From the NCBI RefSeq assembly GCF_001677475.2, contig NZ_CP015229.1: 64,000 bases of DNA. One strand, given 5' to 3'. The translations under genes and the position numbers were made by a program. Numbering within the stretch: the stretch's first letter is position 1; each line of letters begins with the position of its first letter. Shown piece by piece: positions 1,323 through 26,664 of this stretch. The DNA comes from Escherichia coli. Its GTDB lineage: Bacteria; Pseudomonadota; Gammaproteobacteria; Enterobacterales; Enterobacteriaceae. The notes under the pieces are model-generated. The model saw only the letters and a list, made by a program, of their open reading frames with translations, was not told the DNA's origin and searched no databases.

Positions 1323-3263
1323 TCATGCCGCGGCATCCGCGTTGTTCACTTCCACCGCAATGCTGTCAATCAGCACCGGGTAAGTCGCATTCCTGGTAAT
1401 GTCTGTCACATGCATCTTATCCGCCGCAAAGGCACTGACCGGTGACTGCGTCAGCGTGAACGGTGTACCATCCTGACCATCAATAACCGGCGTTACCTGA
1501 AGGCTGTTATTCCCGGCAAAGCGGAAAGCCAGCGTATGCCATTCATTATCAAATGCGCCAAGGGTTCCCAGTTTCTGGTTATTTGTCGCCACTTTCGCAT
1601 TGTGGTACATCACATTCAGGTCTTTTGCGTCTGTCTGGATGTAAAACGATGCCAGCAGATTATTCCCTGCATCCCCTGTCAGGGTGACACCCTGTGGCAG
1701 AGAGGAAACCGGCCAGTAAAGCGCCATGACATACTGGTTTGCCACCAGTTCACCGGATGCCTTAAAGCGGCAACTGATTAAACCTCCATTTTTCAGCAGT
1801 TCAGCGCCAGTACCGGCATCATGCTCCAGATGCCATGACCCTTTACCTGTCTCCTTGCTCAGCTTCATCGCGGTTCCACCTGTTGCACCCTCATCAGCAA
1901 CAATTTCCGCTTTACCTCCGCCAGCACTCCAGCCCTGTTCGGTCAGCTTCCCTTCAGACTCACTGGCCCGGTAAGACAGCAGTGTTGTGGTGCTTACCGC
2001 TTCACTTTCTGACGGTGACGGCGTCGGTGCGCCAGTTTCAGAAGATGGAACATCGACTTTTACTGTGGTTCTCCCGGCATGAACCAGAATCGCCGTTGCC
2101 AGACGGTCGGAAATAATCCCACGGCGTGCCCAGGAGCTGAAATGGCTCGCCCTGTCCTGTGACGTCCAGGTGGCTGAGCTGTCACGCCATTTCGAACCGT
2201 AATAACCGATACCCGGAATGTCCGGGTCTTCTTCCGGTTTGTTCGTCGGCACATTCACCCCGTTCTCATCGGTCATGAACGGTACGAAATGGATATTCTT
2301 TTCCGTTTTGTTTTTATAGCTGCCGTACACCATCTGGTAGGTGGATTCGTTCTTCTGCTTCCAGAAATACGTCGTGTCCCCACATATCCAGGGAACACCG
2401 CCAGCAGAGCCACCGACGCACTGGCCAGCCATATCCGCCAGGTCTGCACGGAATTTATCAACCAGCGCACCAAACTGTGCTGCGTGATTTGCCGGCGTAC
2501 CGCCAAAATCAAATTCCCCCTGCATCCACACCACGGCAAACAGCACATTTTTCGGGTTCTTCTTCAGTGCTGCTTTTGTTCGACCTATAAGGTCCTTATA
2601 CAGGGGCTTGTCCACCCCCCAGCGCACTGAATTCTCCGAGGCACCGGTCGCGTCACTGTATGTGCCATCAGCTCCGGTGGTGAACGCTGAACCACCACGA
2701 CAGCACGGAACCAGCAGAATACCCGCATTCGCCGGTATAAACGGCAGCAGTTTTTTGGCGATATGCAGCCCCTGCCCCACGGTTCCGTACTGCCCCTTTG
2801 ACAGGTCCGCTTTCGGATGGTTAAGACGGCTCATGTCCTGCACATCATGCAGACAATGGTCCGCCGGAATGATGTCGTTATATTTACAGGCGACACCGCC
2901 CGGTGTCACCGTACTGCGACGCGCCAGCTGCTTAATACGCGGCTCCGGACGGTCATATGTCTCCGGTAGCGGAAGACCTTCACCGTATGACATACCATTG
3001 GACTGACCGGCAAGCGCAATCACATAGTAATATTCTGGCGCAACAGAAGGATTCGTTGAGGTCGTCGGACGGTTGCCTGGCTCCTCAGGTGATGAGATGC
3101 TTCCCTCGCTCACAACTGGCTGGATGAATTCCGCACCATAACCAGCTGTCGAAATCAGCGCACTACCATAAGGCTGCCACCCTTCCTTCAGTTTTTGAGT
3201 TATTCGTTCCGCAAGATCGGACGGCGATACCGCCCTGACCACGTCATAGTGTTTAAATGCCAT
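1323..3263 (-). CDS. nanS-p: Prophage sialate O-acetylesterase-like protein (NanS-p family)
   Basis: 646-aa ORF starting MAFKHYDVVRAVSPSDLAERITQKLKEGWQPYG (DUF1737-like N-terminus) followed by esterase-like core; located between tRNAs and lysis genes as in Stx-type prophages. Confidence 0.7.
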   Translation of the reverse strand: MAFKHYDVVRAVSPSDLAERITQKLKEGWQPYGSALISTAGYGAEFIQPVVSEGSISSPEEPGNRPTTSTNPSVAPEYYYVIALAGQSNGMSYGEGLPLPETYDRPEPRIKQLARRSTVTPGGVACKYNDIIPADHCLHDVQDMSRLNHPKADLSKGQYGTVGQGLHIAKKLLPFIPANAGILLVPCCRGGSAFTTGADGTYSDATGASENSVRWGVDKPLYKDLIGRTKAALKKNPKNVLFAVVWMQGEFDFGGTPANHAAQFGALVDKFRADLADMAGQCVGGSAGGVPWICGDTTYFWKQKNESTYQMVYGSYKNKTEKNIHFVPFMTDENGVNVPTNKPEEDPDIPGIGYYGSKWRDSSATWTSQDRASHFSSWARRGIISDRLATAILVHAGRTTVKVDVPSSETGAPTPSPSESEAVSTTTLLSYRASESEGKLTEQGWSAGGGKAEIVADEGATGGTAMKLSKETGKGSWHLEHDAGTGAELLKNGGLISCRFKASGELVANQYVMALYWPVSSLPQGVTLTGDAGNNLLASFYIQTDAKDLNVMYHNAKVATNNQKLGTLGAFDNEWHTLAFRFAGNNSLQVTPVIDGQDGTPFTLTQSPVSAFAADKMHVTDITRNATYPVLIDSIAVEVNNADAAA

Positions 3264-3480
3264 GAATCCTCCCGGCCGGGATAATGTACTGAATAAGATA
3301 AGGAGTGAGCGGAAGTCCCGAAACACAAGGGAAAAAGACAACCACCCGCAAAAAAGAAATACACTCCTCACAGTTGCGCAGGGTGATTACTGTAAGGTAT
3401 TATTCGCAGCGTTAATTAATTGTTCATATTGCTTTTCTTCTTGCCAACCGCTCTTCCCGGGGGCGGCTTTTTTTGCATGT

Positions 3481-3504
3481 AAAAGGCCCCTGCTATGAGG
3501 GGCC
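3481..3504 (-). terminator. Putative intrinsic terminator upstream of esterase gene
   Basis: Minus-strand hairpin GGCCCCT-catagc-AGGGGCC followed by TTTT. Confidence 0.4.
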
Positions 3505-3752
3505 CTAGTATATGCCTAATCTCTGTATACTGCATGGTGCCGGGTGCCTCCCGGTGAGTTCGGCCTGGTGCCACCAAACCCGCGTATTCTCGCTTACGAT
3601 CATCAAAGAGATCATACCATTCACCAGTCGCCCCTCCGCACAGGGGGATTCACCATGCCAGTTTCTTTTAACAAACTCCCCGCAAATCAGACAACTGTCA
3701 ACTGTCTGAATTGTGAGACATTTAAAATTTTCGGGGCATGACTGATACCCGG

Positions 3753-3917
3753 CTAACTACCTGGCATGCCCTTTTTCACCAAAGGGAAAAGCACCACCAC
3801 AATACCAACCACCAGCACTCCATCCGCCAGCACCGACATGACCCTGCTGGTGAAATCCACCATCACCACCAGAAACAGCAGGAGTGCCACAGCAGCCAGA
3901 CGCAGTTTTAATGTCAC
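3753..3917 (-). CDS. Small hydrophobic protein (~54 aa), start overlapping upstream stop
   Basis: GTG start overlaps the TGA of the TerB-like gene; product VTLKLRLAAVALLLFLVVMVDF...GIVVVLFPLVKKG is strongly hydrophobic; not in ORF track (short). Confidence 0.3.
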   Translation of the reverse strand: MTLKLRLAAVALLLFLVVMVDFTSRVMSVLADGVLVVGIVVVLFPLVKKGMPGS

Positions 3918-4345
3918 AGGTGGTTCTCCAGTCGCAGGCCAAGAACACCGGCGATCTCTTCCAGAACCTTACGCTCTTCCGGCTCAATTTCACCATCCGC
4001 TTCAGCAATGGCCACCGCCACATCCAGCACATCTTCCGCTTCATGCGTATCGTGTTTTACATCTTCAATTTCACGCAACGCCGCTCGACGACCAATTTTA
4101 AAGTTGGTGTCAAGCTGACCTGTGATCGTGGCACTGATGGCATTAATTTCTGACGTAAACGCGGACAACGCAGGCTGGTTACGTAATACCTGTTCGATCT
4201 TCGCTTTCTCTGAAGCCTCACATTCACCATCTGCATAGGCCACCAGATAGGCAGCATTAATAACCGCCTGTGCCAGATCACGTTTCTCAAACTTTTTAAT
4301 TTCCGCTGCCGCTCTGCGGGTTTTCTTTTTGAAAATACCAAACAT
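3914..4345 (-). CDS. TerB-family (tellurite-resistance TerB-like) protein
   Basis: 143-aa ORF with paired ADGE(C/I)E-type motifs (AYADGECEASEKAKIE; AEADGEIEPEERKVLEEIAG) typical of TerB domain. Confidence 0.6.
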   Translation of the reverse strand: MFGIFKKKTRRAAAEIKKFEKRDLAQAVINAAYLVAYADGECEASEKAKIEQVLRNQPALSAFTSEINAISATITGQLDTNFKIGRRAALREIEDVKHDTHEAEDVLDVAVAIAEADGEIEPEERKVLEEIAGVLGLRLENHL

Positions 4346-4514
4346 CGTGACGTTCCTTTAGGTGGGTGAGCCAACGCCCGGGAGCGATCTGCCCACAGAG
4401 AAAGTCACACTGACCACTCCGTAAGCTCACCCCCGAAAGGCTCTGTGGTTGATATGCGCCGGGCGTGGCGCGGAGACAAAAAAGGCCCGCAAAAGCGAGC
4501 CTGGTAAATAAATA

Positions 4515-4591
4515 TGGCGCGTTGTACTAGATTCGAACCAGTGACCGATTGCTTAGAAGGCAATTGCTCTGTCCGGCTGAGCTAACAACGC
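4515..4591 (-). tRNA. argO: tRNA-Arg (anticodon UCU)
   Basis: 77-nt cloverleaf on minus strand: acceptor GCGTTGT/ACAACGC, anticodon loop CU-UCU-AA, TTCGAAT T-loop, encoded CCA. Confidence 0.8.
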
Positions 4592-4604
4592 AGTGTACAG
4601 ATAA

Positions 4605-4681
4605 TGGACCGCCATCGAGGACTCGAACCCCGCGCAACCAGCTTCGAAGGCTGGCGCTCTATCCCGATGAGCTAATGGCGG
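4605..4681 (-). tRNA. argN: tRNA-Arg (anticodon UCG)
   Basis: 77-nt cloverleaf on minus strand: anticodon stem CCAGC/GCTGG, loop CU-UCG-AA, TTCGAGT T-loop, encoded CCA; acceptor stem begins with C (unusual). Confidence 0.7.
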
Positions 4682-4688
4682 TAGGTGA

Positions 4689-4764
4689 TGGTGGCCCTTG
4701 CTGGATTTGAACCAGCGACCTGGCGATTATGAGTCGCTCGCTCTCACCACTGAGCTAAAGGGCC
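4689..4764 (-). tRNA. ileZ: tRNA-Ile2 type (anticodon CAU)
   Basis: 76-nt cloverleaf GGCCCTTTAGCTCAGTGG...anticodon loop CU-CAU-AA...GGGCCACCA; CAU anticodon could also be Met, Ile2 inferred from Stx-phage ileZ-argN-argO arrangement. Confidence 0.7.
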
Positions 4765-5134
4765 GGGCGCAGGATAATAACGGCACGTAACTAATTCTGC
4801 AATATCATCCGTTCTGACTGACTAAATTCTGAACTTCCCTGACCGTCTGCTCAAAACGCCCGCTCTCCAGCTCAACGCCAATTGCACGACGCCCCAGCGA
4901 CATTGCTGCTTTGACGCTACGGACATAAAAAAGCCAGCCACTGGGGGAGGCTGGCAAACTCGTAGAGCAAAATGCTGTTACGCAAACTTCGTTACAGGGT
5001 TATCCTGCAATACTTAAAATATACAATATTTAGAAAACTAATAGCACCATATGCGATTTTTAAGATTTTATTATTAATTGCGGTCGCACCTTCCTTTCTG
5101 TGTACTTTCCGTATAACTAACAGGATTCCGGATA

Positions 5135-5160
5135 CAAAAAACCCGCGCATCGGCGGGTTA
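5135..5160 (-). terminator. Intrinsic terminator between AT-rich island and tRNAs (possible tR')
   Basis: Minus-strand hairpin AACCCGC-cgatgc-GCGGGTT followed by TTTTTT. Confidence 0.5.
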
Positions 5161-5271
5161 AGCAGCGTGGCAATGTAACCACTCTTATCATGATATGCAG
5201 ATTTTTACGTACGTAAAATACTTTTTAGCATCCCGTTCAATCGGGAGCGGAATCAGGGATTCCGCGACGCT

Positions 5272-5586
5272 TCACACCACCTCTGGTGGGGATTTTCGAG
5301 CTCTTTTTTTACCACATAGCAATGTATTCAGTCGGCGTTGTTTGGGGCTTCTGCATAAACGACACCAGCTTTGCGGCCTTTTCTTATTCCAACAAATTCT
5401 GAATTCTAATTTTTTCTCAATTTCCTCATCAGAGACAGCTATTTTGCCGCAGAGAGGGCAAGTGTGCTTTTTATCATACTCGGTTTTCAGCACCTCAATT
5501 AACTTACGAATTAATGGCTTGATGTCATAAACGTTCCGCAAATCATAATCATGACCGATTTGAGCATAACTTATCTTCTGCAACAT
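5272..5586 (-). CDS. Hypothetical Cys-rich (zinc-ribbon-like) protein
   Basis: 104-aa ORF with CPLCGK...CWNK...CRLCRS; GGAGG 9 nt upstream of ATG; AT-rich; overlaps upstream gene by 16 nt. Confidence 0.45.
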   Translation of the reverse strand: MLQKISYAQIGHDYDLRNVYDIKPLIRKLIEVLKTEYDKKHTCPLCGKIAVSDEEIEKKLEFRICWNKKRPQSWCRLCRSPKQRRLNTLLCGKKRARKSPPEVV

Positions 5587-5864
5587 CCCTTTTCCTCCAG
5601 GCGTTGAAAGCCTTCTTCTATAATGGCACGAGATGCACGCATTCTGGTGGCAAAAAGAGATATTGACGGTAATGTTTGTGAATCTACATCTTGATGAAAT
5701 GAAACAAAATTAGCCAGCAGAGCTAATTCTGAATGGTTTATTTTTAACCTGTGCTGGTATTTCAAAAGCTCTCTGAGAATAACGAACCAGTCAATGTTTA
5801 AAATATCATCACTCCACAGAGACAAATCGTTTTTCTCTGCTTCCGGGAAATCCTCGATGTCCAT
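5571..5864 (-). CDS. Hypothetical winged-helix-like DNA-binding protein
   Basis: ~97-aa ORF; segment LPSISLFATRMRASRAIIEEGFQRLEEKG resembles winged-helix recognition region of replisome-organizer N-terminal domains; AGGGG upstream of second ATG. Confidence 0.4.
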   Translation of the reverse strand: MDIEDFPEAEKNDLSLWSDDILNIDWFVILRELLKYQHRLKINHSELALLANFVSFHQDVDSQTLPSISLFATRMRASRAIIEEGFQRLEEKGCCRR

Positions 5865-5994
5865 TTTACCCCTGTTCATTGTTGTATCTCTGCGGTTAAA
5901 CGGTAGATAACTCTTACGTCCTTGTCCTATAAAGTAAATAGCATAACGTTCACAAATTTACATACTTCACATAGTGAACGACAAGCGCCTGCTA

Positions 5995-6375
5995 TCACAG
6001 GCGCTGCACATATCGGTCCATTTTCAGTCTGACACCAAGTAACATTAACATCCCTTCAACCACGCCCTCCGCTTTCTGTAATTTTTTACCAATAGTTCCA
6101 TCAGAGCATCCATGCTTACGTGCCAGCGCCATGAACGTCTCCCCCAACACGTAATAATCAACCAGCAAGTCATGCAGATCACTGTTGTTCCTGTTAAGGC
6201 GAGCCATACACCCGCATATAATCATCGCGTCATCGTCACAACACTGTGGACGTGATTTTACTTTTTCGGGGATCAGTCCCTTAAATCCGGCAGCAATGGG
6301 CGACCATGTAACATCCTCATGGTTATTTGCCGCCCATGCCCCCCAGCGCTCAAGAACCTGCCGGATATCACGCAT
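5995..6375 (-). CDS. Late-gene antiterminator Q (QuuD / phage-21 Q family)
   Basis: [24 protein letters not shown]...[19 protein letters not shown] closely resembles recalled QuuD. Confidence 0.8.
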
Positions 6376-6565
6376 CAGTATCTTTACCCCATCCGCGATG
6401 AACCATAAGGACTCCATTGACGACGGCGTGCTTTTTCGCATCTTTATCATCAATGTATTTTCTGACTGTGGCACGATTGCAGTTCAGTATTCTGGCGACT
6501 TCTGTCTGATTTCCCCTGGTGCAGATCAGTAATTCAGGTATCGTTTGAATTTTAGCATTCATCAA
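6368..6565 (-). CDS. Small HTH-like protein
   Basis: 65-aa ORF with [21 protein letters not shown] helix-turn-helix-like segment; overlaps Q start by 8 nt. Confidence 0.35.
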
Positions 6566-8154: not shown

Positions 8155-8556
8155 TCATTCATACCTCCTGTCAGTAAATCTGATCCCCTGCTCCACAGCC
8201 CAGGAAGTTGTGTACTCAATCAGGCTTGCCATACGCTTCACGCTCATCTGCGCACTGCTTTCGCGGATATTGACGTATTCACCTTCAAGACCTGGCAAAA
8301 CATCAGCTTCCTGTTTTGTCGCCACGGCATGACCGCTGATTAACAAAACTTTCCACTGTTCTGGTTTTAGCCATCTGCCGCACCACTGAACCTGTCGGGA
8401 GATATCAGCGACCATCGCGTGAAATTTGGCATTTTGAGATAATTTTCTTGTTGGTTTGCGGATGTCTATGATGAATTTATCGGGGGCGGATTTTACTGCG
8501 TTTAATGCGTTAGCTCTGACGGATTCATTAATCAGATGATACCTTTGTCTTTCCAT
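8155..8556 (-). CDS. ninB: NinB recombination protein
   Basis: [30 protein letters not shown] matches recalled lambda NinB core (LDQNRKLWACLGDVSRQVEWHGRWL). Confidence 0.75.
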
Positions 8557-9238
8557 TAGATAGCGCCTCTTCTATGGTTTTTCCTCTCATTAGCCTTACT
8601 GTAATCGTTGAGTAGGGTATGCCTGTTTCTTCACTCCATTCTTTAATGGTCATTGTTTTCCCGTACGCTGTAAGATTTCGCGTTCTTCTGGTGTTGAGCT
8701 TTTGCTCTCGGTCAGTAGCCCATCGGCAATTCTCTTTGCAGTAATCACCATTGACATCAATACGATCAATGCTGCATCCGTCAGGCCTCTCTCCCATGTC
8801 TTCCAGGAAAAGATCAAATGAATTCCACCGTTCACAAACGCGAATCCCCCTCCCTCCATAGTTTTTGTATCCTGGTGTTTCGGGGTTATTGCATCTAGAT
8901 TTCATTTGGGCCCATGAAGAATATGCGCCCTTCCTTTTCCTGGGTTTTCCGTTATTTGCACATCTCAATGCTGCCGATTTCTTTACAAGACATCCGCATG
9001 ATTTAGTTCTACCTGTTGTCAGGGCCGAACGATAAATAAGTTTTTCCTTTCCACAATCACACCGACAAACCCATCGGCTTTCTCCAACTTTACCTCTTGG
9101 GTTTATATATGGATCTCCTTTTCGTAATACCACCAGGAGTCCGTATCTGTTGCCAATTTCAACCATATAGTAATTCCTTGCGCTTGTAGTCAGTAATGCG
9201 GATGGTGACTGGCTTGTCTTTATCGAGAGTTGTTGCAA
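8528..9238 (-). CDS. Cys-rich phage protein, possible HNH-type nuclease/DNA-binding protein
   Basis: CRCDCGK...CGC Zn motif and GYKNYGGRGIRVCERW...CRWAT segment; family assignment is from memory only. Confidence 0.4.
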   Translation of the reverse strand: MQQLSIKTSQSPSALLTTSARNYYMVEIGNRYGLLVVLRKGDPYINPRGKVGESRWVCRCDCGKEKLIYRSALTTGRTKSCGCLVKKSAALRCANNGKPRKRKGAYSSWAQMKSRCNNPETPGYKNYGGRGIRVCERWNSFDLFLEDMGERPDGCSIDRIDVNGDYCKENCRWATDREQKLNTRRTRNLTAYGKTMTIKEWSEETGIPYSTITVRLMRGKTIEEALSNGKTKVSSD

Positions 9239-9353: not shown

Positions 9354-9986
9354 TCAGAATTCAAATTGTCTTGCCCGTAGTTGCGCCAGCATGCTTCTGG
9401 CCCTATGCACCATATAGTTGGCGGGATCAAGTTTTGCTGCTTCGCGGAGCAATGTGTCGCGAGTCCGGTTGGTTATATGACGAGTCTCGTAGGCCAGATC
9501 AAACAGTTTCCCGTAGTAATCAGAGTTCAGTTCTCTCATGACGGGGTATAGCTGTTTACTGAGTTGTTGTGCTTTTTCCATCCAGAGTTGAACGTAGCAG
9601 AGCAGGATGATGTCTTCTGCTGTGAATTGCGGCTGAATATGAGGTTGTGGCGGTATAGCGCTTTTTTCAGCTTCACGGTCCAGAATATCCAATACCCAGC
9701 GACGAAACTCTTTTGCTATTGGAGTTCGAGCAAACATCGCTATTAGGTGAGCGCCGCGTAATGAGAAGATGCGAGTCTCTTGCTTGTCCCCTTTAGGATC
9801 GGTCAATTTGACCGAGGCTGTCATACCGTTTGTGAATTCATCTGCGTGACGGGCATAGATGCGTGTTACCGAGCTTTGATCTGCATATTGTAACGCGCTG
9901 GCTATTTGGGGGGCAGACAACCACAGTAGACCATCTCGTTGAACGGTCTGGAATTGAACATTGTGGAATACAAGTTGAGTGCTCAT
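9354..9986 (-). CDS. Antirepressor-like protein, Bro-N-type N-terminal domain
   Basis: 210-aa ORF; C-terminal ~100 aa homologous to the adjacent paralog (QPQFTAEDIILLCYVQLWMEKAQ...LRARQFEF). Confidence 0.55.
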   Translation of the reverse strand: MSTQLVFHNVQFQTVQRDGLLWLSAPQIASALQYADQSSVTRIYARHADEFTNGMTASVKLTDPKGDKQETRIFSLRGAHLIAMFARTPIAKEFRRWVLDILDREAEKSAIPPQPHIQPQFTAEDIILLCYVQLWMEKAQQLSKQLYPVMRELNSDYYGKLFDLAYETRHITNRTRDTLLREAAKLDPANYMVHRARSMLAQLRARQFEF

Positions 9987-10240: not shown

Positions 10241-10906
10241 TTAAAACTCGAATTGTCTTGCCCGCAGGCTTTTCAGCATTGGTCTGGCCCGCTGGATAAC
10301 GAAACTTGACTGGTCAAGCCGTGCCGCCTCCCGCAGTAGCGCGTCTCTGTTCTTCGTCACCATGTAGATGGTTTCAAACGCAATGTCATACAGCTTGTTC
10401 GTGTATGAGGAGTTCAGCTCTTTCATAATGGGATACAGGTGTTTGCTGATGTTCTGGGCTTTTTCCATCCAGAGCTGCATGTAGCAAAGGAGGATGATTT
10501 CCTCGGCTGTGAATTGTGGCTGAATCTGCGACTGCTGTTCGGTTTGTATTGTTTTTCCCAGGCTGAAATAGCAGTCTTCCAGTTTTTCGAATACTTCCCA
10601 CGCTCGATCGGTTTCGAGCATTTTTGCATGACGGGCTGCGCCGCGTTCTGTCCAGAGGATGAGGTGCTTTGTACGCGGTGCAACTAAGTTACTTTGAGTA
10701 ACCTTGTTCTTAAATTCCCGCAATTCAGCCCCTTCCAATTTGAAGTAGTGCTTCCCGCAAACAAAACGCTCGGCATTGCGCGTATAGTTCACTTTGATGT
10801 TATTAGTTTCGGTGCCATAAAGTTGTGCCAAAAGCTCGGTGGTAATAACAAGAATCTGGTTATGGGTAATCGGGGAGATGGTTTCAACAGAGATTTGAGT
10901 TGTCAT
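10241..10906 (-). CDS. Antirepressor-like protein, ORF6N-type N-terminal domain
   Basis: N-terminus LAQLYGTETNNIKVNYTRNAERF...KHLILWTERGAARHAKML resembles ORF6N; C-terminus shared with 9354-9986 gene. Confidence 0.55.
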   Translation of the reverse strand: MTTQISVETISPITHNQILVITTELLAQLYGTETNNIKVNYTRNAERFVCGKHYFKLEGAELREFKNKVTQSNLVAPRTKHLILWTERGAARHAKMLETDRAWEVFEKLEDCYFSLGKTIQTEQQSQIQPQFTAEEIILLCYMQLWMEKAQNISKHLYPIMKELNSSYTNKLYDIAFETIYMVTKNRDALLREAARLDQSSFVIQRARPMLKSLRARQFEF

Positions 10907-11173: not shown

Positions 11174-11257
11174 TCAACCCCAGCGGCAAATCGAATACTC
11201 CACCAGCGCCACCGCCAGTGCAATTCCTGCCGTTGTGAACGCCTCAGGCCAGGTCAT
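11174..11257 (-). CDS. 27-aa hydrophobic peptide, start overlapping upstream stop
   Basis: ATG overlaps TGA of 11254-11577 gene (ATGA); product MTWPEAFTTAGIALAVALVEYSICRWG; not in ORF track. Confidence 0.25.
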   Translation of the reverse strand: MTWPEAFTTAGIALAVALVEYSICRWG

Positions 11258-11577
11258 CGTAAAACATCCTCCACGCTTATAAGTCCGTTTCGCTCCAGAT
11301 AGTCCATCGCTTTATCCGGTAATTTGCAGCCCGGTTTCGCTTTCCTCAGTTGCCAGGCTAACTGCTTTACCAGCATGGTTAACTCGTCGACCAGACGCTG
11401 ATATCCCACTGGTTTGTATTCATGCAATTTACCAGCTGGCTCTGCTACCAGCGATGCCAGTGCAATTTTGAATAACTCACCCTCTACCCGTGCCATCTCT
11501 GAATTAGGGTGGCATTTCGCAATCGCTATTTTTAATTTAGCTTCTTCGATTAATTGCTCTTTTGTTAATTCAGTCAT
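11254..11577 (-). CDS. Hypothetical phage protein (107 aa)
   Basis: Clean ORF in nin-like region. Confidence 0.5.
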   Translation of the reverse strand: MTELTKEQLIEEAKLKIAIAKCHPNSEMARVEGELFKIALASLVAEPAGKLHEYKPVGYQRLVDELTMLVKQLAWQLRKAKPGCKLPDKAMDYLERNGLISVEDVLR

Positions 11578-11672
11578 TTTTCATTACTGCCCTTTCAGGC
11601 GGACTCCTGATGTTCTGAGGGTACAGAAATCCCTCCGGTTAAGGATTAAATTTTTAACAGTGCTAAATTTAA

Positions 11673-12029
11673 TTATTCAGTTCTGGATTTTGTCGCTCTG
11701 CGCATCCGCGCTTTTGCGTTACGCTCAATCTGAATTAGCTTTTCTATATTTTTCCGCCTTTCCCGTTCCTCCTGACGCAATAGCCTTACATCATCTGCCA
11801 GTCTGGTTTCTCTTTTCGCCACAGAGAGCATCCAGTCAAACGGCTCCACAACTGCACCGCAGATTTTACAGCGGACCTGACGCTCTTTTTCGTCAACCCG
11901 GACAGAGTCGTGATGACAATATGGTCTTTCCGATGGCTCATAAAGAAAATTAACCTGATTACGTGGGTCATCCTCTTTTACCGGAAATAAAACAATATTA
12001 CTTAACTCATCTTCTGGTTTTATTTCCAC
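11673..12029 (-). CDS. Hypothetical Cys-containing phage protein
   Basis: ORF with CHHD...CKICG; start set at GTG 12027-12029 preceded by AGGAGA, just past upstream stop. Confidence 0.4.
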   Translation of the reverse strand: MEIKPEDELSNIVLFPVKEDDPRNQVNFLYEPSERPYCHHDSVRVDEKERQVRCKICGAVVEPFDWMLSVAKRETRLADDVRLLRQEERERRKNIEKLIQIERNAKARMRRATKSRTE

Positions 12030-12030
12030 G

Positions 12031-12333
12031 TTAGTCTCCTTTAATACGAATCCCTGCAACACGTAGTGCATGTTCTAAATCAGCAAGATAAAGCCAGCTA
12101 CCATTTTCTTTAGGTATCATGACATGACGCTCATCAGCATTTATCGGGTGTCCATATCGAAGTTCATAGCCAGCCGGTAGCTGGACTTCCCTTGCTTCCA
12201 GTTCTGCAATGCGCTTGTCTTTGGCTTCCAGTTCATCAAGAACCTTCTTTATGGCTGGTGAATGTGCCGTATAACTCGCAGCCGGACCAGCAAGCATTAT
12301 CCTGAGCTGTGCTTTCGCTTTTTCTATTCTCAT
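12031..12333 (-). CDS. Hypothetical phage protein (100 aa)
   Basis: ORF; abuts next gene. Confidence 0.5.
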   Translation of the reverse strand: MRIEKAKAQLRIMLAGPAASYTAHSPAIKKVLDELEAKDKRIAELEAREVQLPAGYELRYGHPINADERHVMIPKENGSWLYLADLEHALRVAGIRIKGD

Positions 12334-12645
12334 CTATGCCATCACCTTGTTTCGCAACCAGACACAAACCGGACCATCTTCAGTATCATGAATGGAGCCA
12401 ATAAACCAGCCTTCGCCCTCTGGTCGTTCCGGTTCCCAGGTGGAAATATCGGGGTCATCTGCAACCGGATTTAAATAATCTTCATCCATGCTGCAAATAG
12501 TCCACTGAAGATTATTTGCCTTCATCCAGGCGCTAAACTCTTCCGTTGAAATATATTCCCGACCGTCACAGAACTTTTCATATTCTGGATGTGTCCAGCA
12601 GCCATATTCATCACGTTCTACTGGTATTTCTCTAATTTCATTCAT
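12334..12645 (-). CDS. Hypothetical phage protein (103 aa)
   Basis: ORF; 8-nt overlap with upstream gene. Confidence 0.5.
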   Translation of the reverse strand: MNEIREIPVERDEYGCWTHPEYEKFCDGREYISTEEFSAWMKANNLQWTICSMDEDYLNPVADDPDISTWEPERPEGEGWFIGSIHDTEDGPVCVWLRNKVMA

Positions 12646-12892
12646 TTCTGTTCTCCCATGTTTTCAGACTTTCACCGCAGAACGGGCAAAATGAAACCCG
12701 AACTGGTGATTTAGAAAATTCACCGGAACGCAACATCACTAAATCAGGGTCGCGAGTTAAATTCTCATTCCAGATTTTGTATATCAGCAGACCTTTTCGC
12801 GTCGTGTATTCAGCATCATGCTCAAGGGAGTTTGCCAGTGCCGTACACGGTTCTATCTTGTTGCCATAAACCTGGCATTTTGATTTACCCAC
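12638..12892 (-). CDS. Hypothetical Cys-containing phage protein (84 aa)
   Basis: ORF with CPFCG; 8-nt overlap with upstream gene. Confidence 0.45.
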   Translation of the reverse strand: MGKSKCQVYGNKIEPCTALANSLEHDAEYTTRKGLLIYKIWNENLTRDPDLVMLRSGEFSKSPVRVSFCPFCGESLKTWENRNE

Positions 12893-13373
12893 TGGTCGCT
12901 TCCTTCACAAAAATAATCCAATGTGTTTTATCGTTCTTACCGGTGCGCTGGCTGATGATTGGTTTCGCGTCGGTTAGTGCCAATATCTGGCGGACAGGTA
13001 TTTGCGTTTCATTCCATTTAAAAATCAGAACACCGTGTGGCCACAACACACGAAAGGCTTCTTTAAATCCCTGCCGCAAATCATCACGCCAGGTATCTTT
13101 ATTCAGCCGTCCATATTTCTTTCCCATCCAGGCGTTATCACCAACACGCTCAAGATGCGGAGGGTCGAATACAACAACCGGAAACGATGCGTCTGCAAAT
13201 GGTAATGCACGAAAATCTGCTATCAGGTCAGGGCTAATTATCAGGCGTCGTCCATCACATAATGTGTGCTCTTCTTTTCTGATATCGCTAAATATCGCCC
13301 GGTCGTCATTCTTATCGAACCAGAACATACGGCTGCCACAGCACATATCAAGAATGGTTGCAGGTGTACTCAC
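12885..13373 (-). CDS. Small SAM-dependent methyltransferase, probable orphan DNA methyltransferase
   Basis: 162-aa ORF with N-terminal DMCCGS (motif I-like) and downstream VVFDPPH (DPPY-like motif IV); no adjacent restriction gene. Confidence 0.5.
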   Translation of the reverse strand: MSTPATILDMCCGSRMFWFDKNDDRAIFSDIRKEEHTLCDGRRLIISPDLIADFRALPFADASFPVVVFDPPHLERVGDNAWMGKKYGRLNKDTWRDDLRQGFKEAFRVLWPHGVLIFKWNETQIPVRQILALTDAKPIISQRTGKNDKTHWIIFVKEATSG

Positions 13374-13801
13374 AGCATCACCTCCTGAAATTTCCCCTGA
13401 TAAAACGCCAACACGCGCTGCATAACCTCACTCTTCCGGCACTCGCGACAGATTATGTTCAGACGCCTGTCGTAACGACGTATTTCTCCGTCTGGTAATG
13501 AATAAACCAGGTCCGGGTCGCTCTTTTTTTTCACTGCTGCTTTCGACATCTTTTTGCGGGCCTTTATCCAGTCCTTACGTGCCTGTTCAGACGGAAATAG
13601 CCCGTAGCCGGAGTTGTATAAATCGCCACTGGCAACCAGCTCTCTGGCAAGAACACTCATCAGATATCTTGTCGCACCTGTTTTCGCTTCCAGTTGCCGT
13701 AACGTCTCGCGCCCGCTCAGACGCACAAGTTCAACAACCTGTACCTTAATTTTTTCCCGCTCTTCTTGTGTAAATACTTTTGCCATAAGCGCCTCCGGCA
13801 A
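13370..13801 (-). CDS. Hypothetical phage protein (143 aa)
   Basis: ORF; 4-nt overlap with methyltransferase gene. Confidence 0.5.
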   Translation of the reverse strand: MPEALMAKVFTQEEREKIKVQVVELVRLSGRETLRQLEAKTGATRYLMSVLARELVASGDLYNSGYGLFPSEQARKDWIKARKKMSKAAVKKKSDPDLVYSLPDGEIRRYDRRLNIICRECRKSEVMQRVLAFYQGKFQEVML

Positions 13802-14572
13802 TCACTTTTCCGATGCAACACGGCGGGAAGAATCAGCAATCTGTCGAACAATATCCCGGTGCTTGTTCAGCTCCCGCAGCGCGGCGCAGACACGCTCCCA
13901 CTTCTGGACATGATTTTTCGCCCGACGCAGTTCGCGGTTTGCCATATGCAGCGATGGTAAAACCAGGTCATCCGCTCGCGTTTCAGTAAACGATGGCAAC
14001 GACTGCACAATGTCCGCCACAGTTTCTGTTTTAATATCTTCCTGTGTTGCAGCTTCCTGTACCGGTAACGCAACACCTGCTGGCTGAGGAAAGGCTTTAC
14101 CATCGGTTTCTGCTACCGATGCAGCTTTCGGCTCTGCTGGTAAATTATCTCCAGGCATGCAGTAGCGAAATTTACCGTTCTGATTTACGCGTGCCAGGCG
14201 TCCCGTTGCGGTTACCACCGCCAGCGTGGAAGCAACCTTGCGAGTGCTGACACCGAACTTACCCGCCAGTTCCTCACATGTTTTAGCCCCCTCCTGAGAG
14301 ATAAACTCAATCATCATGTCAGCGCTAACTTTTGGAGCGACCTCTTCGGTTACCACATCCGGCGCTTCAGGTTGTAGTGCCTGCCCTTCGGTTACCCCGG
14401 ATTCACCTTCGACAGCCAGAAACCAGGTGTGACCCGTTTTATCAACAACGCCATTTTTTTTGAGTTCCCACAGTTCGTTGAGAACTTCTTCACGGCTGAT
14501 ATCAAGCCGCGCCGCCAGTTCAACAGAATTGGCTTTTCCCATCGCTTTCAGTGCATGCAGTACGGTTTCCAT
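13802..14572 (-). CDS. Hypothetical phage protein with winged-helix-like segments (256 aa)
   Basis: ORF directly downstream of DnaC-like gene. Confidence 0.5.
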
Positions 14573-14597: not shown

Positions 14598-15338
14598 TCA
14601 CATACCCTGACGCCCAACGTTTGATCGCCAGCTCTCCCAGTTAAAACTCACCCAACGACCACCGTTCATGGTCATACGGTCCATCACCCGCTCGCCGAGG
14701 AGTGTGCTCATCGCTGCGTGATTCAGGTTCGTCAGGATTCCGACAGTGCGCAGTGATGCCGTTCTGCGGTCGACGATCTGGTTCAGTATGACCTGCTCGT
14801 TGCGCGTATCCCGCTGCATGCCAATTTCATCCAGGACCAGAAGGTCGACCCCGCAAAGTTCCTGTAAAAATTTCTCACCGGACTTGCCGTTGTCATAGCC
14901 GTCATGCAACACGCTCATGACATCGGACACGGTGACGATAATCACGCTTCTCCCCTTCGCCATCAGCCGGTTGCCAATCGCTGCTGCCAGGTGATTTTTA
15001 CCGGTACCAGGTTTACCGCTGAACACGAAGTTTGTACACCCGGTCATCAATTCATCGGCAATGGATTTCGCCTGGCTCAGAGCATGGCGCTGACCGTCGT
15101 TCTGCACCCGGTAGTTCTCGAATGAGCACTTCCTGTGAAGCGGCTGGATGCCCGCACGGTTCAGGATTTTTTCAACCCGCGCCTGATGATTCTGGCGGTT
15201 AATTTCCTCGCTGCGCTTACGGCCCTCAGCCAGTTGCCATTCCCGCCATTCGTCGGTCGTCCGGAACGGTGCTGCCACGTGCGGTGGTGCCAGACGGCGC
15301 ACCCGTTCAAGAATCCCTCCTGTCGAAATGTTTTTCAT
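14598..15338 (-). CDS. DnaC-like replicative helicase loader (AAA+ ATPase)
   Basis: Walker A FSGKPGTGKNHLAAAIG and Walker B DLLVLDEIG in DnaC/IstB-like context. Confidence 0.8.
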   Translation of the reverse strand: MKNISTGGILERVRRLAPPHVAAPFRTTDEWREWQLAEGRKRSEEINRQNHQARVEKILNRAGIQPLHRKCSFENYRVQNDGQRHALSQAKSIADELMTGCTNFVFSGKPGTGKNHLAAAIGNRLMAKGRSVIIVTVSDVMSVLHDGYDNGKSGEKFLQELCGVDLLVLDEIGMQRDTRNEQVILNQIVDRRTASLRTVGILTNLNHAAMSTLLGERVMDRMTMNGGRWVSFNWESWRSNVGRQGM

Positions 15339-15344
15339 GGCTGA

Positions 15345-16427
15345 TTACCCCCTGAACCCCGGCGGAATTTCGGTGTCCGGTTCAGAAATGTGGTTCACGC
15401 AACGCTGGCTGACTGCGCCAGCCTTCGGCAGCGACCACGGATTTTCGAAATTCCTGTTCGGGCCAAAAAACGTCGATGCCTGCTGAACAAATTCAGTTCC
15501 CGCTTTCCCGGTAGCCTCCAGGTATCTTGCGTAACGCCTCACGCCATCCAGCACGACATCCGGTGACACCCCTTCGCGTAATCTGGCCCTCCAGGCATTG
15601 AACGCGGATTTCTTCGGGTTTGACCCTGCCCGATGCGGATATTCACGCCAGACCCGTTCGAACACGTCAGGATAATCAACTCGTCCCGCAGACGGTCCCG
15701 GCATCGCCCGGGTTAACCCAATCGGCTTCCCGCTCATCGCGGAATCGGCTTCAGGCTGCTGCGGTTGGTGTTGTTGCTCCGGTTCGACGAGCAGCACCTG
15801 CTGCACACAACGCCCGGAATCTGCTTCCGGTGTCATGCCAGCTGGTCCTGGACGTTCAGTCAGAACGGGACAAGAATCCACCAGTGGGTCCGTGGCGATT
15901 TTTTCGCCATGGACCAGAAGGGTTTTATCTCTTTCCTGTTCCTGTTCCTGTTCCTGTTCTTGGCTTGAAAGGGGCTCTGAAGGGGCTTCAATTTTCCGAC
16001 ATGATTCACGTCTGACATCCAGGTGGAAATCATCCTTATATCTATCATAAAAGGATGATAAAAAAGGATTTTCCAGCAACGCGGAATATTCATTTCTTAC
16101 CCCAGCACAACGGTTATCGCCTGGTTTCAGCGCTTCACCAACCTGCCATGCTGCCATTTCATGCACCCATACAACCTCAGAATCATGGTCATAGCTGCAA
16201 AAACCAGCCTCGCAAGCCATTTGAAGCCCCTTAGAAGCCCCTTCAGGATCAAGTCCGGTTTCGTGAGCAATGTACAAAACAGGCAGGTAATAAAGGCCCA
16301 GCATATTGGAATGAGGCGAGGTCATCATATACAACGCCACTACCATACATTCCGGACCAGACTTCCTTAGTTTTCGCCCTGTATCGCCTAACCAGAACTG
16401 AGGTGAAATTGTTGCGTAATTACGCAT
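15345..16427 (-). CDS. Replication initiator (lambda O-like replisome organizer)
   Basis: 360-aa ORF between cII and DnaC-like gene; internal repeats and an AT-rich tract inside the coding region resemble an O-gene-embedded origin. Confidence 0.55.
   Translation of the reverse strand: MRNYATISPQFWLGDTGRKLRKSGPECMVVALYMMTSPHSNMLGLYYLPVLYIAHETGLDPEGASKGLQMACEAGFCSYDHDSEVVWVHEMAAWQVGEALKPGDNRCAGVRNEYSALLENPFLSSFYDRYKDDFHLDVRRESCRKIEAPSEPLSSQEQEQEQEQERDKTLLVHGEKIATDPLVDSCPVLTERPGPAGMTPEADSGRCVQQVLLVEPEQQHQPQQPEADSAMSGKPIGLTRAMPGPSAGRVDYPDVFERVWREYPHRAGSNPKKSAFNAWRARLREGVSPDVVLDGVRRYARYLEATGKAGTEFVQQASTFFGPNRNFENPWSLPKAGAVSQRCVNHISEPDTEIPPGFRG
15935..15958. repeat. Hexanucleotide tandem repeat (CCTGTT)x4 inside replication gene
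   Basis: Perfect four-unit repeat; encodes (EQ)n on minus strand. Confidence 0.9.
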
Positions 16428-16460
16428 AGTCCCCTCGCATACAAGATTTACTCCATACCG

Positions 16461-16610
16461 CAGACGGTCCCGGTATCTCCCGGGTTAACCCAATCGGCTT
16501 CAGGCTGCTGCGGTTGGTGTGACTGCACATTGGTGTGACTGCACATCTTCACAGACGGTCCCGGTATCTCCGGGTTAACCCAATCGGCTTCAGGCTGCTG
16601 CGGTTGGTGT
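16461..16610. repeat. Two direct copies of a ~60-bp repeat, third copy at 15689-15775 inside the replication gene; includes tandem 15-bp repeat
   Basis: cagacggtcccggtatctc(c)cgggttaacccaatcggcttcaggctgctgcggttggtgt at 16461-16520 and 16552-16610; ggtgtgactgcacat duplicated at 16516-16545. Confidence 0.85.
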
Positions 16611-17360: not shown

Positions 17361-17440
17361 TAATTTAGTTAACTTCGAGTTAATGTTAACTATTAGCTGA
17401 CAGTTATGTCAACTATGTTTGATAATTAACGTATGGTTAA
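17361..17440. promoter_or_regulatory. Divergent cro/cI promoter-operator region (OR)
   Basis: Two perfect TTAAC-N5-GTTAA palindromes (17369-17383, 17426-17440); rc TTGACA at 17407-17412 for cro; CTGACA-18bp-GATAAT ending 7 nt before cI ATG. Confidence 0.5.
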
Positions 17441-18203
17441 AAAAGATGAACTAAAAGAAGCGTTCTCAAAGAGACTACTACAGGCATTATTAGATGCAGG
17501 TGTGGGCGGACGCGGTCAGGCTAAGCGGATTCAGAATGCAATGAAACTGCGAGGCATTGATATCTCTGAACCGGGGATCTGGAAATGGCTTAATTCTGCA
17601 TCAATTCCAGAAAAAACAAGTATTTTGGCACTTAGTGACTGGCTTTCCGTGAGGCCGGAGTGGTTGGAGTATGGCAGTAACGAGCCATCCGTAAAACAGC
17701 GACCTTCAATTCCAAACGAATCAGAATGGGGTTCCCTTGAAACTTGGGACAGAAATACACCACTACGAGATGATGAAGTTGAGGTGCCATATCTGAAAGA
17801 CATTGAGTTTGCATGCGGTGACGGAAGAGTTCATTGCGAAGATCATAATGGTTTTAAATTACGCTTCTCAAAAGCAACCCTGCGCCGTGTCGGAGCTAAC
17901 AGTGATGGTTCTGGTGTGCTTTGTTTTCCGGCTACTGGTGATAGCATGGAGCCCGTGATACCAGATGGAACAACAATCGCAGTAGACACAAACAACAAAC
18001 GTATTGTTGACGGCAAACTCTACGCCATCGCACAGCCTGGTGTCGGTGATGAAAAACTGAAGCGTATAAAACTATTGTACAGACGCCCCGGTGGAAAACT
18101 AATCATACGCAGTTATAACAGTGAAGAGTACCCTGACGAAGAAGCAGATACTCAAAGCGTGGAGATTATCGGAAAAGTTTTCTGGTATTCAGTTCTGCTT
18201 TAG
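17433..18203 (+). CDS. cI: CI-type prophage repressor (HTH N-terminus, S24 LexA-like C-terminus)
   Basis: 256-aa ORF with GDSMEP active-site motif and K-containing LexA-like C-terminal domain. Confidence 0.85.
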   Translation: MVKKDELKEAFSKRLLQALLDAGVGGRGQAKRIQNAMKLRGIDISEPGIWKWLNSASIPEKTSILALSDWLSVRPEWLEYGSNEPSVKQRPSIPNESEWGSLETWDRNTPLRDDEVEVPYLKDIEFACGDGRVHCEDHNGFKLRFSKATLRRVGANSDGSGVLCFPATGDSMEPVIPDGTTIAVDTNNKRIVDGKLYAIAQPGVGDEKLKRIKLLYRRPGGKLIIRSYNSEEYPDEEADTQSVEIIGKVFWYSVLL

Positions 18204-25273: not shown

Positions 25274-25645
25274 ATGGATTCACACAGTATCACCCTCAAA
25301 GAGGCCTGTCAGTTTCTCAAGATATCAAGGCCAACAGCTGTTAACTGGATACGAACGGGCCGACTACAGGCAACACGAAAAAATTCTTCCGGTAAAAGAT
25401 CACCTTATCTCACAACCCGGCAAGCCTGCATTGCAGCACTTCATTCACCGCTGCATACTGTCCAGGTGAGCGCGGGTGATGGCATAACAGAGGAAAGAAA
25501 ATGTCACTCTTCCGCAGAGGTGAAATATGGTACGCCTCGTACTCGCTCCCGGGCGGGAAGCGAATTAAGGAGTCTCTTGGCACAAAGGACAAGCAGCAAG
25601 CTCAGGAGTTGCACGACAAGCGAAAAGCAGAACTCTGGCGAGTAG
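25274..25645 (+). CDS. xis: Excisionase-like HTH protein
   Basis: [31 protein letters not shown] matches Xis/AlpA-type HTH; directly upstream of and overlapping int; C-terminal extent uncertain. Confidence 0.5.
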
Positions 25646-26664
25646 ACAGACTGGGGGATATGCCAGATGTCACTTTCGAAGAAGCCTGCCTGAGATGGCT
25701 TGAGGAAAAAGCCGACAAGAAATCCATCGATTCCGATAAATCCAGAATCGCATTCTGGATTGAGCATTTCGAGGGAATAAGGATTAAGGATATATCGGAG
25801 GCAATGATCTACTCAGTTATCAGCAAAGCGTATAACCGAAAAACAAAGGAGAGATGGAAGTTGCAGGTGGAGGCTGCATTAAGAAAAGGGAAAGAACCAC
25901 CAGCCTATATACCTAAATCGGTGAGCACGCAAACAAAAGCAACACACCTGGCAATGATCAAGGCTATTCTGCGCGCCGCAGAGCGAGACTGGAAATGGCT
26001 TGAAAAAGCACCTGTAATCAAAATACCTGCCGTAAAAAACAAACGCGTGAGATGGCTGGAAAAAGAAGAAGCCAGGAGACTCATTGATGCATGTTCTGAC
26101 CCCCTGAAATCTGTAGTTAAATTTGCATTGGCAACTGGCCTGAGGAGATCAAACATTATTAATCTGGAGTGGCAACAAATCGATATGCAGCGACGTGTTG
26201 CCTGGGTAAACCCTGAAGACAGTAAGTCAAACCGCGCTATTGGGGTCGCACTGAATGACACTGCCTGCAAGGTGTTGCGTGATCAAATAGGCAAACATCA
26301 CCGCTGGGTGTTTGTTTATACCACTGCTGCCAGAAGGCCTGACGGGACAATGACACCAAGCATCAGAAAGATGCGCCTGGACTATAACACATCGTGGTTA
26401 ACAGCATGTCGTCGGGCAGGAATTGAAAATTTCCGTTTTCATGACCTCCGCCATACCTGGGCCAGTTGGTTAATTCAGTCAGGTGTACCGCTGTCAGTAC
26501 TTCAGGAAATGGGCGGCTGGGAGTCTATCGAAATGGTGCGTAGGTACGCACACCTTGCACCTAATCATTTGACAGAGCACGCGAGGAAAATTGACGACAT
26601 ATTGGGTGACGATGTCCCAAATTTGTCCCACTCTGAGGTTTTTGAGGATGCAAAGAAAGCATAA
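25501..26664 (+). CDS. int: Tyrosine integrase
   Basis: 387-aa ORF with HDLRHTWAS...RRYAHL catalytic region; last phage gene before host junction. Confidence 0.85.

Follow-up and report, generated by a model that had tools for sequence, protein, structure and literature searches.

Which substrate is methylated by a small enzyme encoded between the replication genes and ninB of a lambda-like prophage? The question is raised by a gene for a 162-residue protein in a 64,000-nucleotide stretch of Escherichia coli DNA (NCBI RefSeq assembly GCF_001677475.2, contig NZ_CP015229.1), referred to here as the window, to which positions refer unless another source is named. A preliminary description of the locus had proposed an orphan DNA methyltransferase with a DMCCGS motif I and a DPPH motif in a nin-like region, packed among small phage genes and without a restriction partner, and it had allowed for an RNA target. 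Both motifs are present (LDMCCGS at residues 8-14 and DPPH at residues 70-73), and the protein is almost certainly a minimal class I methyltransferase, whose use of S-adenosylmethionine (SAM) we infer. We consider it very probable that the enzyme methylates an amino group in a nucleic acid, and the reading that we favour, as a probable one, is that of a stand-alone minimal amino-methyltransferase acting on DNA.

The gene and its predicted product

The GTG start of the methyltransferase gene overlaps the stop codon of the upstream gene (GTGA, within ATG CTG TGA), and its own stop shares 8 nucleotides with the next open reading frame (ORF), in agreement with the earlier remark on tight packing. 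Together with the AGGAGGT listed in Table 1, these overlaps form the layout of a translationally coupled phage operon, in which the GTG start is credible. The ratio of nonsynonymous to synonymous substitution rates (dN/dS) against close homologues is 0.086 and 0.09; with more distant homologues the synonymous sites are saturated, protein identity being 74-83% at 70-75% DNA identity. The gene is real and under purifying selection, not a chance ORF. An ORF on the opposite strand (12832-13425, plus strand, 197 amino acids) exceeds it in length, runs in a wobble-aligned antisense frame and could mislead gene callers. We regard this antisense ORF as a by-product or artefact because it is interrupted by stop codons in 58 of 74 homologues.

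Conservation was assessed in an alignment of 92 diverse family members. In motif I, D9 is retained in 98%, C12 in 93% and G13 in 96% of them, and in motif II R32 is found in 99%. The DPPH of motif IV, encoded by GAC CCT CCG CAT in the reverse complement, is invariant in all 92 aligned members and present in 142 of 148 representatives. It conforms to the (D/N/S)-P-P-(Y/F/W/H) motif of amino-methyltransferases, with His as a rare variant at the fourth position. Besides D70, P71, P72 and H73, the invariant residues are D30, P48 and R108, and D9, G13, R32, Y87, G88, W95, E105, K119 and W120 are nearly so. Within the segment that follows motif IV, conservation of W95, E105, R108, K119 and W120 is at least 97%.

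An AlphaFold2 model built from the 92 relatives has a predicted local distance difference test (pLDDT) score of 95.1 and a predicted template modelling (pTM) score of 0.89. It displays a pared-down methyltransferase fold, the N-terminal half of which has few helices; the chain stops just past the last strand (150-156 of 162 residues). The features of class I (Rossmann-fold) enzymes are present: a central beta-sheet fold, a glycine-rich motif I that follows strand 1, and an acidic residue ending strand 2. Fold comparison confirms the class I assignment but singles out no substrate: Foldseek matches reached an expectation value (E) of 1.9e-6 at best with template modelling (TM) scores of ~0.5-0.6, M.TaqI being placed at rank 21. 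The nearest solved amino-methyltransferases by structure are the RNA N2-methylguanosine (m2G) enzymes Trm11, RsmC and TrmN. Sequence searches of the PDB returned nothing close, there is no close solved homologue, and a library of viral structures held one family member and otherwise generic matches.

Evidence on the substrate

The best Pfam matches of the window protein, Methyltransf_11 and Methyltransf_25, are sub-threshold, generic and without a defined substrate, and the NCBIfam scan gave nothing meaningful. A full-length match was obtained to PHROG 954, "DNA methyltransferase" (E 3.6e-87, residues 4-160), and PADLOC profiles PDLC03288 (MTase_II, E 3.6e-72) and PDLC03730 (oMTase, E 6.9e-48) were matched as well. 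When the 92 members were scanned, N6_N4_Mtase was the only substrate-defined Pfam family matched by many of them (34 sub-threshold matches, best E 3.1e-4); matches to the RNA-type families RsmD (six members) and UPF0020 (five members) were weaker, with E 0.016 or worse.

Comparison by hhalign with cds16 of phage SpSL1, a bona fide N6_N4_Mtase (Pfam E 2e-14), gave a probability of 72.8% and E 3.2e-5 over 54 columns, in which F-x-L-V-V-F-DPPH...YG...W...F-E-C-FRV is aligned with the DPPY segment of cds16. Because of this alignment and the N6_N4_Mtase matches, we take the catalytic half to be related to the beta-class DNA amino-methyltransferases. The statement for SpSL1 of "no adenine methylation detected" (PMC6755750) was considered as evidence on the family and set aside as not applicable, cds16 being an ordinary N6_N4_Mtase. 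A precedent for the size of the protein is the phage enzyme PamA of Staphylococcus aureus, which has 141 amino acids and an NPPY motif and for which DNA methylation was reported from a DpnI digestion assay (PMC12435837); small size therefore does not exclude sequence-specific DNA methylation. PamA was also considered as a member of the family, but it is a different small methyltransferase and serves as a precedent only.

The comparison of gene neighbourhoods took in 86 loci, namely the window, 80 IMG/VR contigs, another metagenome contig and four further phages or contigs. The genes immediately upstream fall into 59 clusters and those immediately downstream into 67; the methyltransferase has no obligatory partner gene and is an orphan. 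In the window, the flanking ORFs had no PADLOC match and the adjacent genes no nuclease domain, in contrast to what a type II restriction-modification system would present, and because no cognate nuclease was found the enzyme is treated as an orphan here as well. Among the recurrent neighbours, just one is functionally informative: a large C5 cytosine DNA methylase (PF00145, E 3.4e-24), which lies on the same strand and at most four genes away in 13 of the 86 loci. Such a methylase also accompanies the family gene in Gordonia phage Pickett and beside a distant metagenomic member. All annotated phage contexts examined place the family gene within the early replication/recombination module, and in Listeria A006 it stands directly 3' of a DnaD-like loader.

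A further link to DNA methylation is provided by the 248-residue enterobacterial forms, whose C-terminal extension is the sole one that forms a family. The extension matches phrog_16025 and the tail of another "DNA methyltransferase" family, phrog_111. The same tail is found at the end of ST64B Sb44 and of the Citrobacter phiNP "mtase", whose catalytic domains are those of a PF05869 phage Dam (E ~1e-43); tails of the 248-residue forms and of these Dam proteins are 43-44% identical (E 1e-15 and 2e-16), but their catalytic parts show no relationship. Four viral loci have the tail as a separate small ORF, which runs into the start of the C5 methylase, and in phiNP a C5 methylase comes immediately after the Dam-plus-tail gene. 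We find this module of ~60-90 amino acids in three states, free-standing 5' of the C5 methylase, fused to the DPPH enzyme and fused to a PF05869 Dam, and it may belong functionally to the C5 methylase.

The recurring arrangement is an amino-methyltransferase, the tail and a C5 DNA methylase, in this order. Because the tail module is common to both, the DPPH enzyme and a phage Dam fill the same cassette position. The result is a positional equivalence to a known DNA enzyme family, which is evidence by association and not proof. The tail had also been considered as a sign of DNA binding by the DPPH core, a claim that we softened to a cassette position shared with Dam: since the tail also exists as an ORF of its own that goes with the C5 methylase, it supports the position and not a direct property of the core.

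Proposed mechanism and alternative explanations

DNA is favoured as the substrate by indirect evidence, namely the resemblance to the beta class, the adjacency of C5 methylases, the cassette position shared with Dam, the location in the early replication module and the database labels. Of the preliminary proposal, "methyltransferase" stands by fold and motifs and "orphan" by the diversity of neighbours, while DNA as the target is favoured rather than shown.

In the mechanism that we propose, the gene is transcribed from the early rightward operon of the prophage, with its translation coupled to that of the replication genes, and would therefore yield its enzyme only once the prophage is induced or a cell is infected. 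SAM would be bound via motif I LDMCCGS, D30 after strand 2 and D53-F54, and the D70-P-P-H73 loop would position a flipped-out base by its exocyclic amino group, to which the methyl group would be transferred directly. Replicating phage DNA would be the most likely substrate and N6-methyladenine the most likely product, with N4-methylcytosine as the alternative; an Asp at the first position of motif IV fits N6-adenine best. Because there is no target-recognition domain and nearly the same protein occurs across unrelated hosts, the site would probably be the same everywhere and short or degenerate. The probable benefit would be the shielding of progeny DNA from host restriction, although on an anti-restriction role our own judgement is evenly divided.

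Several observations weigh against an anti-restriction DNA methyltransferase. The window protein falls short of every curated threshold in Pfam and NCBIfam and has no domain that could obviously read DNA sequence, and the names in PHROG and PADLOC are labels whose origin could not be established. Both the tail and a neighbouring C5 methylase are missing from the window copy. Identities of 45-65% among phages of Enterobacteria, Actinobacteria, Firmicutes and Bacteroidota are usually not seen in host-specific anti-restriction enzymes, and our search of the literature found no experimentally characterised family member and no assigned recognition site; a gut phagenome study contains no data resolved to this family. 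A variant that we hold to be doubtful but deserving of attention is a "universal" methyltransferase without a recognition domain, which would have the same target in every host and would not be a conventional site-specific anti-restriction enzyme. On DNA, this would be an amino-methyltransferase with no specificity, or a specificity of 1-3 nucleotides, giving broad protection from Actinobacteria to Archaea; on RNA, it would modify a universally conserved RNA against RNA-targeting defence.

Methylation of host RNA more generally, for example as m2G or N6-methyladenosine (m6A) in a universally conserved transfer RNA (tRNA) or ribosomal RNA, would adjust translation or counteract a defence or toxin directed at RNA. 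The structural neighbours Trm11, RsmC and TrmN keep this explanation alive and justify the earlier caveat about an RNA target; one RefSeq record is named "TRM11 family methyltransferase", RsmD and UPF0020 are weakly matched in a few members, and strong conservation across phyla without a variable recognition domain would fit one invariant target. However, the protein lacks a THUMP domain or any other that binds RNA, motif I beginning as early as residue 8, and the RNA-type matches are both rarer and weaker (5-6 of 92) than those to N6_N4_Mtase. The catalytic half aligns with a DNA enzyme, and the family recurs beside C5 DNA methylases and in the position of the phage Dam, all of which leaves RNA an unlikely substrate in our view.

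We consider a target outside nucleic acids, either a protein side chain (glutamine or lysine, as for HemK and N6AMT1/KMT9) or a small molecule, to be quite improbable. It is the explanation to which the generic Methyltransf_11 and Methyltransf_25 matches would point, Methyltransf_25 being taken by MicrobeMod-type pipelines as a marker of non-DNA enzymes, and Foldseek lists KMT9/N6AMT1, NPPY enzymes that act on protein substrates. These Pfam matches are, however, sub-threshold and confined to the SAM-binding parts, so that the profiles do not give the assignment to a non-nucleic-acid family which the preliminary description had named as decisive against it. The gene contexts are those of DNA replication and DNA methylase genes and, to our knowledge, the invariant (D/N/S)PP-aromatic loop is absent from small-molecule Methyltransf_11 enzymes, which also counts against such a target.

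A restriction partner could be sought in an HNH-endonuclease-like ORF at 8528-9238 (minus strand, 236 amino acids, cysteine-rich), of which the methyltransferase would then be the modification half. The ORF matches phrog_374 (HNH, E 1.2e-65) and phrog_8790, labelled "restriction endonuclease" (E 5.2e-40), and it shares strand, operon and prophage with the methyltransferase gene. Yet the two are 3.6 kb and seven ORFs apart, no HNH family is found among the recurrent neighbours in the 86 loci, and the methyltransferase occurs without the HNH ORF in other annotated contexts. The ORF is without a Pfam match, and HNH genes of this kind are common as free-standing phage genes, one in ST64B standing beside a different methyltransferase type. 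We judge the pairing to be highly improbable, and the earlier statement that there is no restriction partner holds for the neighbourhood of the gene.

Distribution and significance of the family

The family gene is carried by 877 of 5,426 complete E. coli genomes, or about one in six. A word-indexed search gave 7,824 relatives, and an exhaustive search 2,024 cluster representatives, 232 of them below 1e-30. With tblastn, the family was found in 254 phage records, including those of Streptococcus (68), Vibrio (38), Acinetobacter (19) and Porphyromonas (15) as well as Listeria, Gordonia, Lactobacillus, Enterococcus and Staphylococcus, and also one of a haloarchaeal virus, at 33% identity. Gordonia phages encode proteins 64% identical to that of E. 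coli, and for Listeria and Streptococcus phages the value is ~50%. A distant member (43% identity) lies at 5326-5781 of the 5,949-bp contig ENA ERZ893784 k147_2848839 (L009), which is microvirus-sized and encodes a Microviridae major capsid protein (Phage_F); because this copy is on the opposite strand and at the contig end, it may belong to adjacent host or prophage DNA and not to the microvirus.

The whole enzyme consists of the core of ~150 amino acids. A conserved N-terminal domain, prompted by the offset of the PHROG profile and by the many members of 200-240 amino acids, was rejected since all 40 extensions were unrelated singletons, and the N-terminal extensions of database entries are most simply explained as mis-called starts.

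The protein is already catalogued: it falls within PHROG 954, and RefSeq holds proteins of 98% identity under the name "class I SAM-dependent methyltransferase". The annotations are in conflict: RefSeq uses this name or "TRM11 family", JGI uses "UbiE", and PHROGs and PADLOC use DNA methyltransferase. Pipelines that employ Methyltransf_25 as a non-DNA decoy would discard the family altogether. It is present in temperate phages of many pathogens, the hosts including Streptococcus, Listeria, Enterococcus, Staphylococcus, Acinetobacter, Klebsiella and Vibrio, and despite this abundance we found no evidence for what it methylates; assignment of the substrate would settle the annotation of thousands of genes. 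Should the enzyme be a true DNA methyltransferase of ~150 residues with little or no specificity, it would be a compact footprinting tool and a broad anti-restriction factor, and the universal DNA version would be the smallest such enzyme known. Should it be an ordinary site-specific enzyme, the finding would be routine.

Prophage setting

The host element is a lambda-like prophage, which reaches from the window's left end as far as an integrase gene (25501-26664); beyond it lie ordinary chromosomal genes. From the immunity region, the minus-strand order is Cro-like, CII-like, O-like, DnaC/IstB-like loader, DUF1627, DUF977 and methyltransferase (Table 1). On its 3' side there are, in order, five small ORFs without an assigned function, a pair of antirepressor-like genes, the HNH-endonuclease-like ORF, NinB, further nin-region ORFs and Q. 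"Nin-like region" was thus a fair description; more exactly, the methyltransferase occupies an exchangeable slot between the replication module and ninB. The slot 3' of DUF977 is mosaic: its occupants are a DUF4145 gene and a HigBA toxin-antitoxin pair in the closest complete E. coli genome (L007:17849-19398), and the methyltransferase and five small ORFs in the window (11254-13373). Over the 86 loci, the ORF directly downstream is no conserved partner. A Trm112-like activator, suggested by Trm112-dependent enzymes among the top Foldseek matches and by the four cysteines of this downstream ORF, was rejected as the neighbours are not conserved.

Table 1. Positions of the methyltransferase gene, its motifs and other features of the prophage, with sites of the phrog_16025 module in other loci
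Feature	Position	Strand	Remarks
Methyltransferase coding sequence	12885-13373	minus	GTG start, TAA stop, 162 amino acids
Shine-Dalgarno AGGAGGT	13380-13386	minus	6 nucleotides 5' of the GTG start; read from sequence
Motif I LDMCCGS, residues 8-14	13332-13352	minus	Predicted SAM-binding glycine loop after strand 1
Motif II FSDIR, residues 28-32	13278-13292	minus	D30 ends strand 2 (modelled 26-30); predicted SAM-ribose contact
Motif III ADF, residues 52-54	13212-13220	minus	D53 95%, F54 90% (92 members)
Motif IV DPPH, residues 70-73	13155-13166	minus	Predicted catalytic loop directly after strand 4 (64-69)
Residues 88-121, G-x-L...W...GF-E-x-FRVL-x-P-x-G-x-L-I-F-K-W	13011-13112	minus	Helix and strand 5 after motif IV; portion similar to beta-class DNA amino-methyltransferases
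Downstream ORF	12638-12892	minus	Co-operonic; 84 amino acids, four cysteines; PHROG 4030 (function unknown)
DUF977 gene	13370-13801	minus	Upstream, co-operonic; PHROG label "Ren-like exclusion protein"
DUF1627 gene	13802-14572	minus	
DnaC/IstB-like loader	14598-15338	minus	Same operon, upstream
O-like replication protein	15345-16427	minus	Same operon, upstream; replication module 14598-16427
cI-like repressor	17433-18203	plus	
NinB	8155-8556	minus	
Q antiterminator	5995-6474	minus	
phrog_16025 module	L071:6545-6802; L029, L038, L035; L092:1820-4421; P0013 residues 160-248		

Other parts of the prophage have features of their own. The two antirepressor-like genes (9354-9986 and 10241-10906, minus strand) are adjacent and differ in their N-terminal domains (Bro-N and ORF6N), and they have the P22_AR_C C-terminal domain in common, with near-identical stretches. 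The late region (1323-6474, minus strand) has the layout of a Shiga toxin phage without toxin genes and includes three tRNAs (Met-CAT, Arg-TCG and Arg-TCT) at 4515-4764. A TerB-family ORF (3914-4345) occupies the position where stx would be, followed at 1323-3371 by a protein that combines DUF1737, sialate-esterase and DUF6645; the corresponding slot of the closest complete genome contains stx1a (L007:11470-12696). Around the O-like gene, a direct repeat of ~60 nucleotides is present in three copies (15686-15771, 16458-16520 and 16549-16610). Two of these lie ~90 nucleotides apart directly 5' of the gene and the third within it, and the repeat yields a repeated QQHQPQQPEAD peptide in two ORFs. 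The repeats may be origin iterons or the result of duplication.

Comparison with known systems

Among catalogued families, the window protein is a full-length member, without sequence difference, of the putative phage or orphan DNA methyltransferases PHROG 954, PDLC03288 and PDLC03730. To the beta class (PF01555; M.RsrI, M.PvuII, CcrM and M.EcoGII) it is similar from before motif IV to motif VI. It differs by an unpermuted motif order (motif I at residue 8, motif IV at residue 70), by lacking a central recognition domain, by being about half the size and by a His in place of the aromatic residue. The window protein gave no PF01555 match at E up to 1, and the matches of its 34 relatives remain below the gathering score. 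The order of motif I before motif IV fits the gamma class (M.TaqI type), from which the protein differs by having no C-terminal target-recognition domain; no gamma-class model was matched in its Pfam scan.

Similarity of position and size is displayed by the PF05869 Dams (ST64B Sb44, the Citrobacter phiNP "mtase" and the K-12 YfdM fragment), whose catalytic part is of similar size and whose slot is right after the replication genes, and which have the same optional C-terminal tail and the same C5 methylase neighbour. Their motif is NPPY as opposed to DPPH, and no membership is indicated: there was no Pfam match, hhalign gave 0.4% against Sb44 and BLASTP found no similarity of the catalytic domains. 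YfdM of E. coli K-12 was considered as a fragment of the DPPH family and rejected (BLASTP E 9.7, and no match to the tail). Annotated as a "putative methyltransferase" of 91 amino acids, yfdM (L006:8113-8388) is an N-terminal fragment of a PF05869 Dam (E 2.5e-23). PamA is comparably small, a likeness that concerns size and not family membership.

Trm11 and Trm14 (UPF0020), which rank among the closest solved structures, share the D-P-P-aromatic loop and the placing of motif I ahead of motif IV. They have an N-terminal THUMP domain, and Trm11 works with Trm112, whereas the window family has neither THUMP nor a conserved partner. For membership among Trm11, Trm14 and RlmL there is no room for an N-terminal domain, and the UPF0020 matches have E 0.071 or worse.

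The prophage-encoded non-specific adenine methyltransferases M.EcoGII, Hia5 and Hin1523 are likewise prophage-borne orphans, although larger and of the beta class. They show that a broadly protective enzyme of little or no sequence specificity can exist, and the DPPH family may be non-specific too. M.EcoGII is reportedly silent in the lysogen (PMC5778455). Orphan methyltransferases of phages are a known kind of enzyme, and the present one is unusually small and unusually conserved across distant hosts. Out of the ordinary in the family are the invariant His of motif IV, a core of ~150 amino acids without a recognition domain and an identity of 45-65% across phyla.

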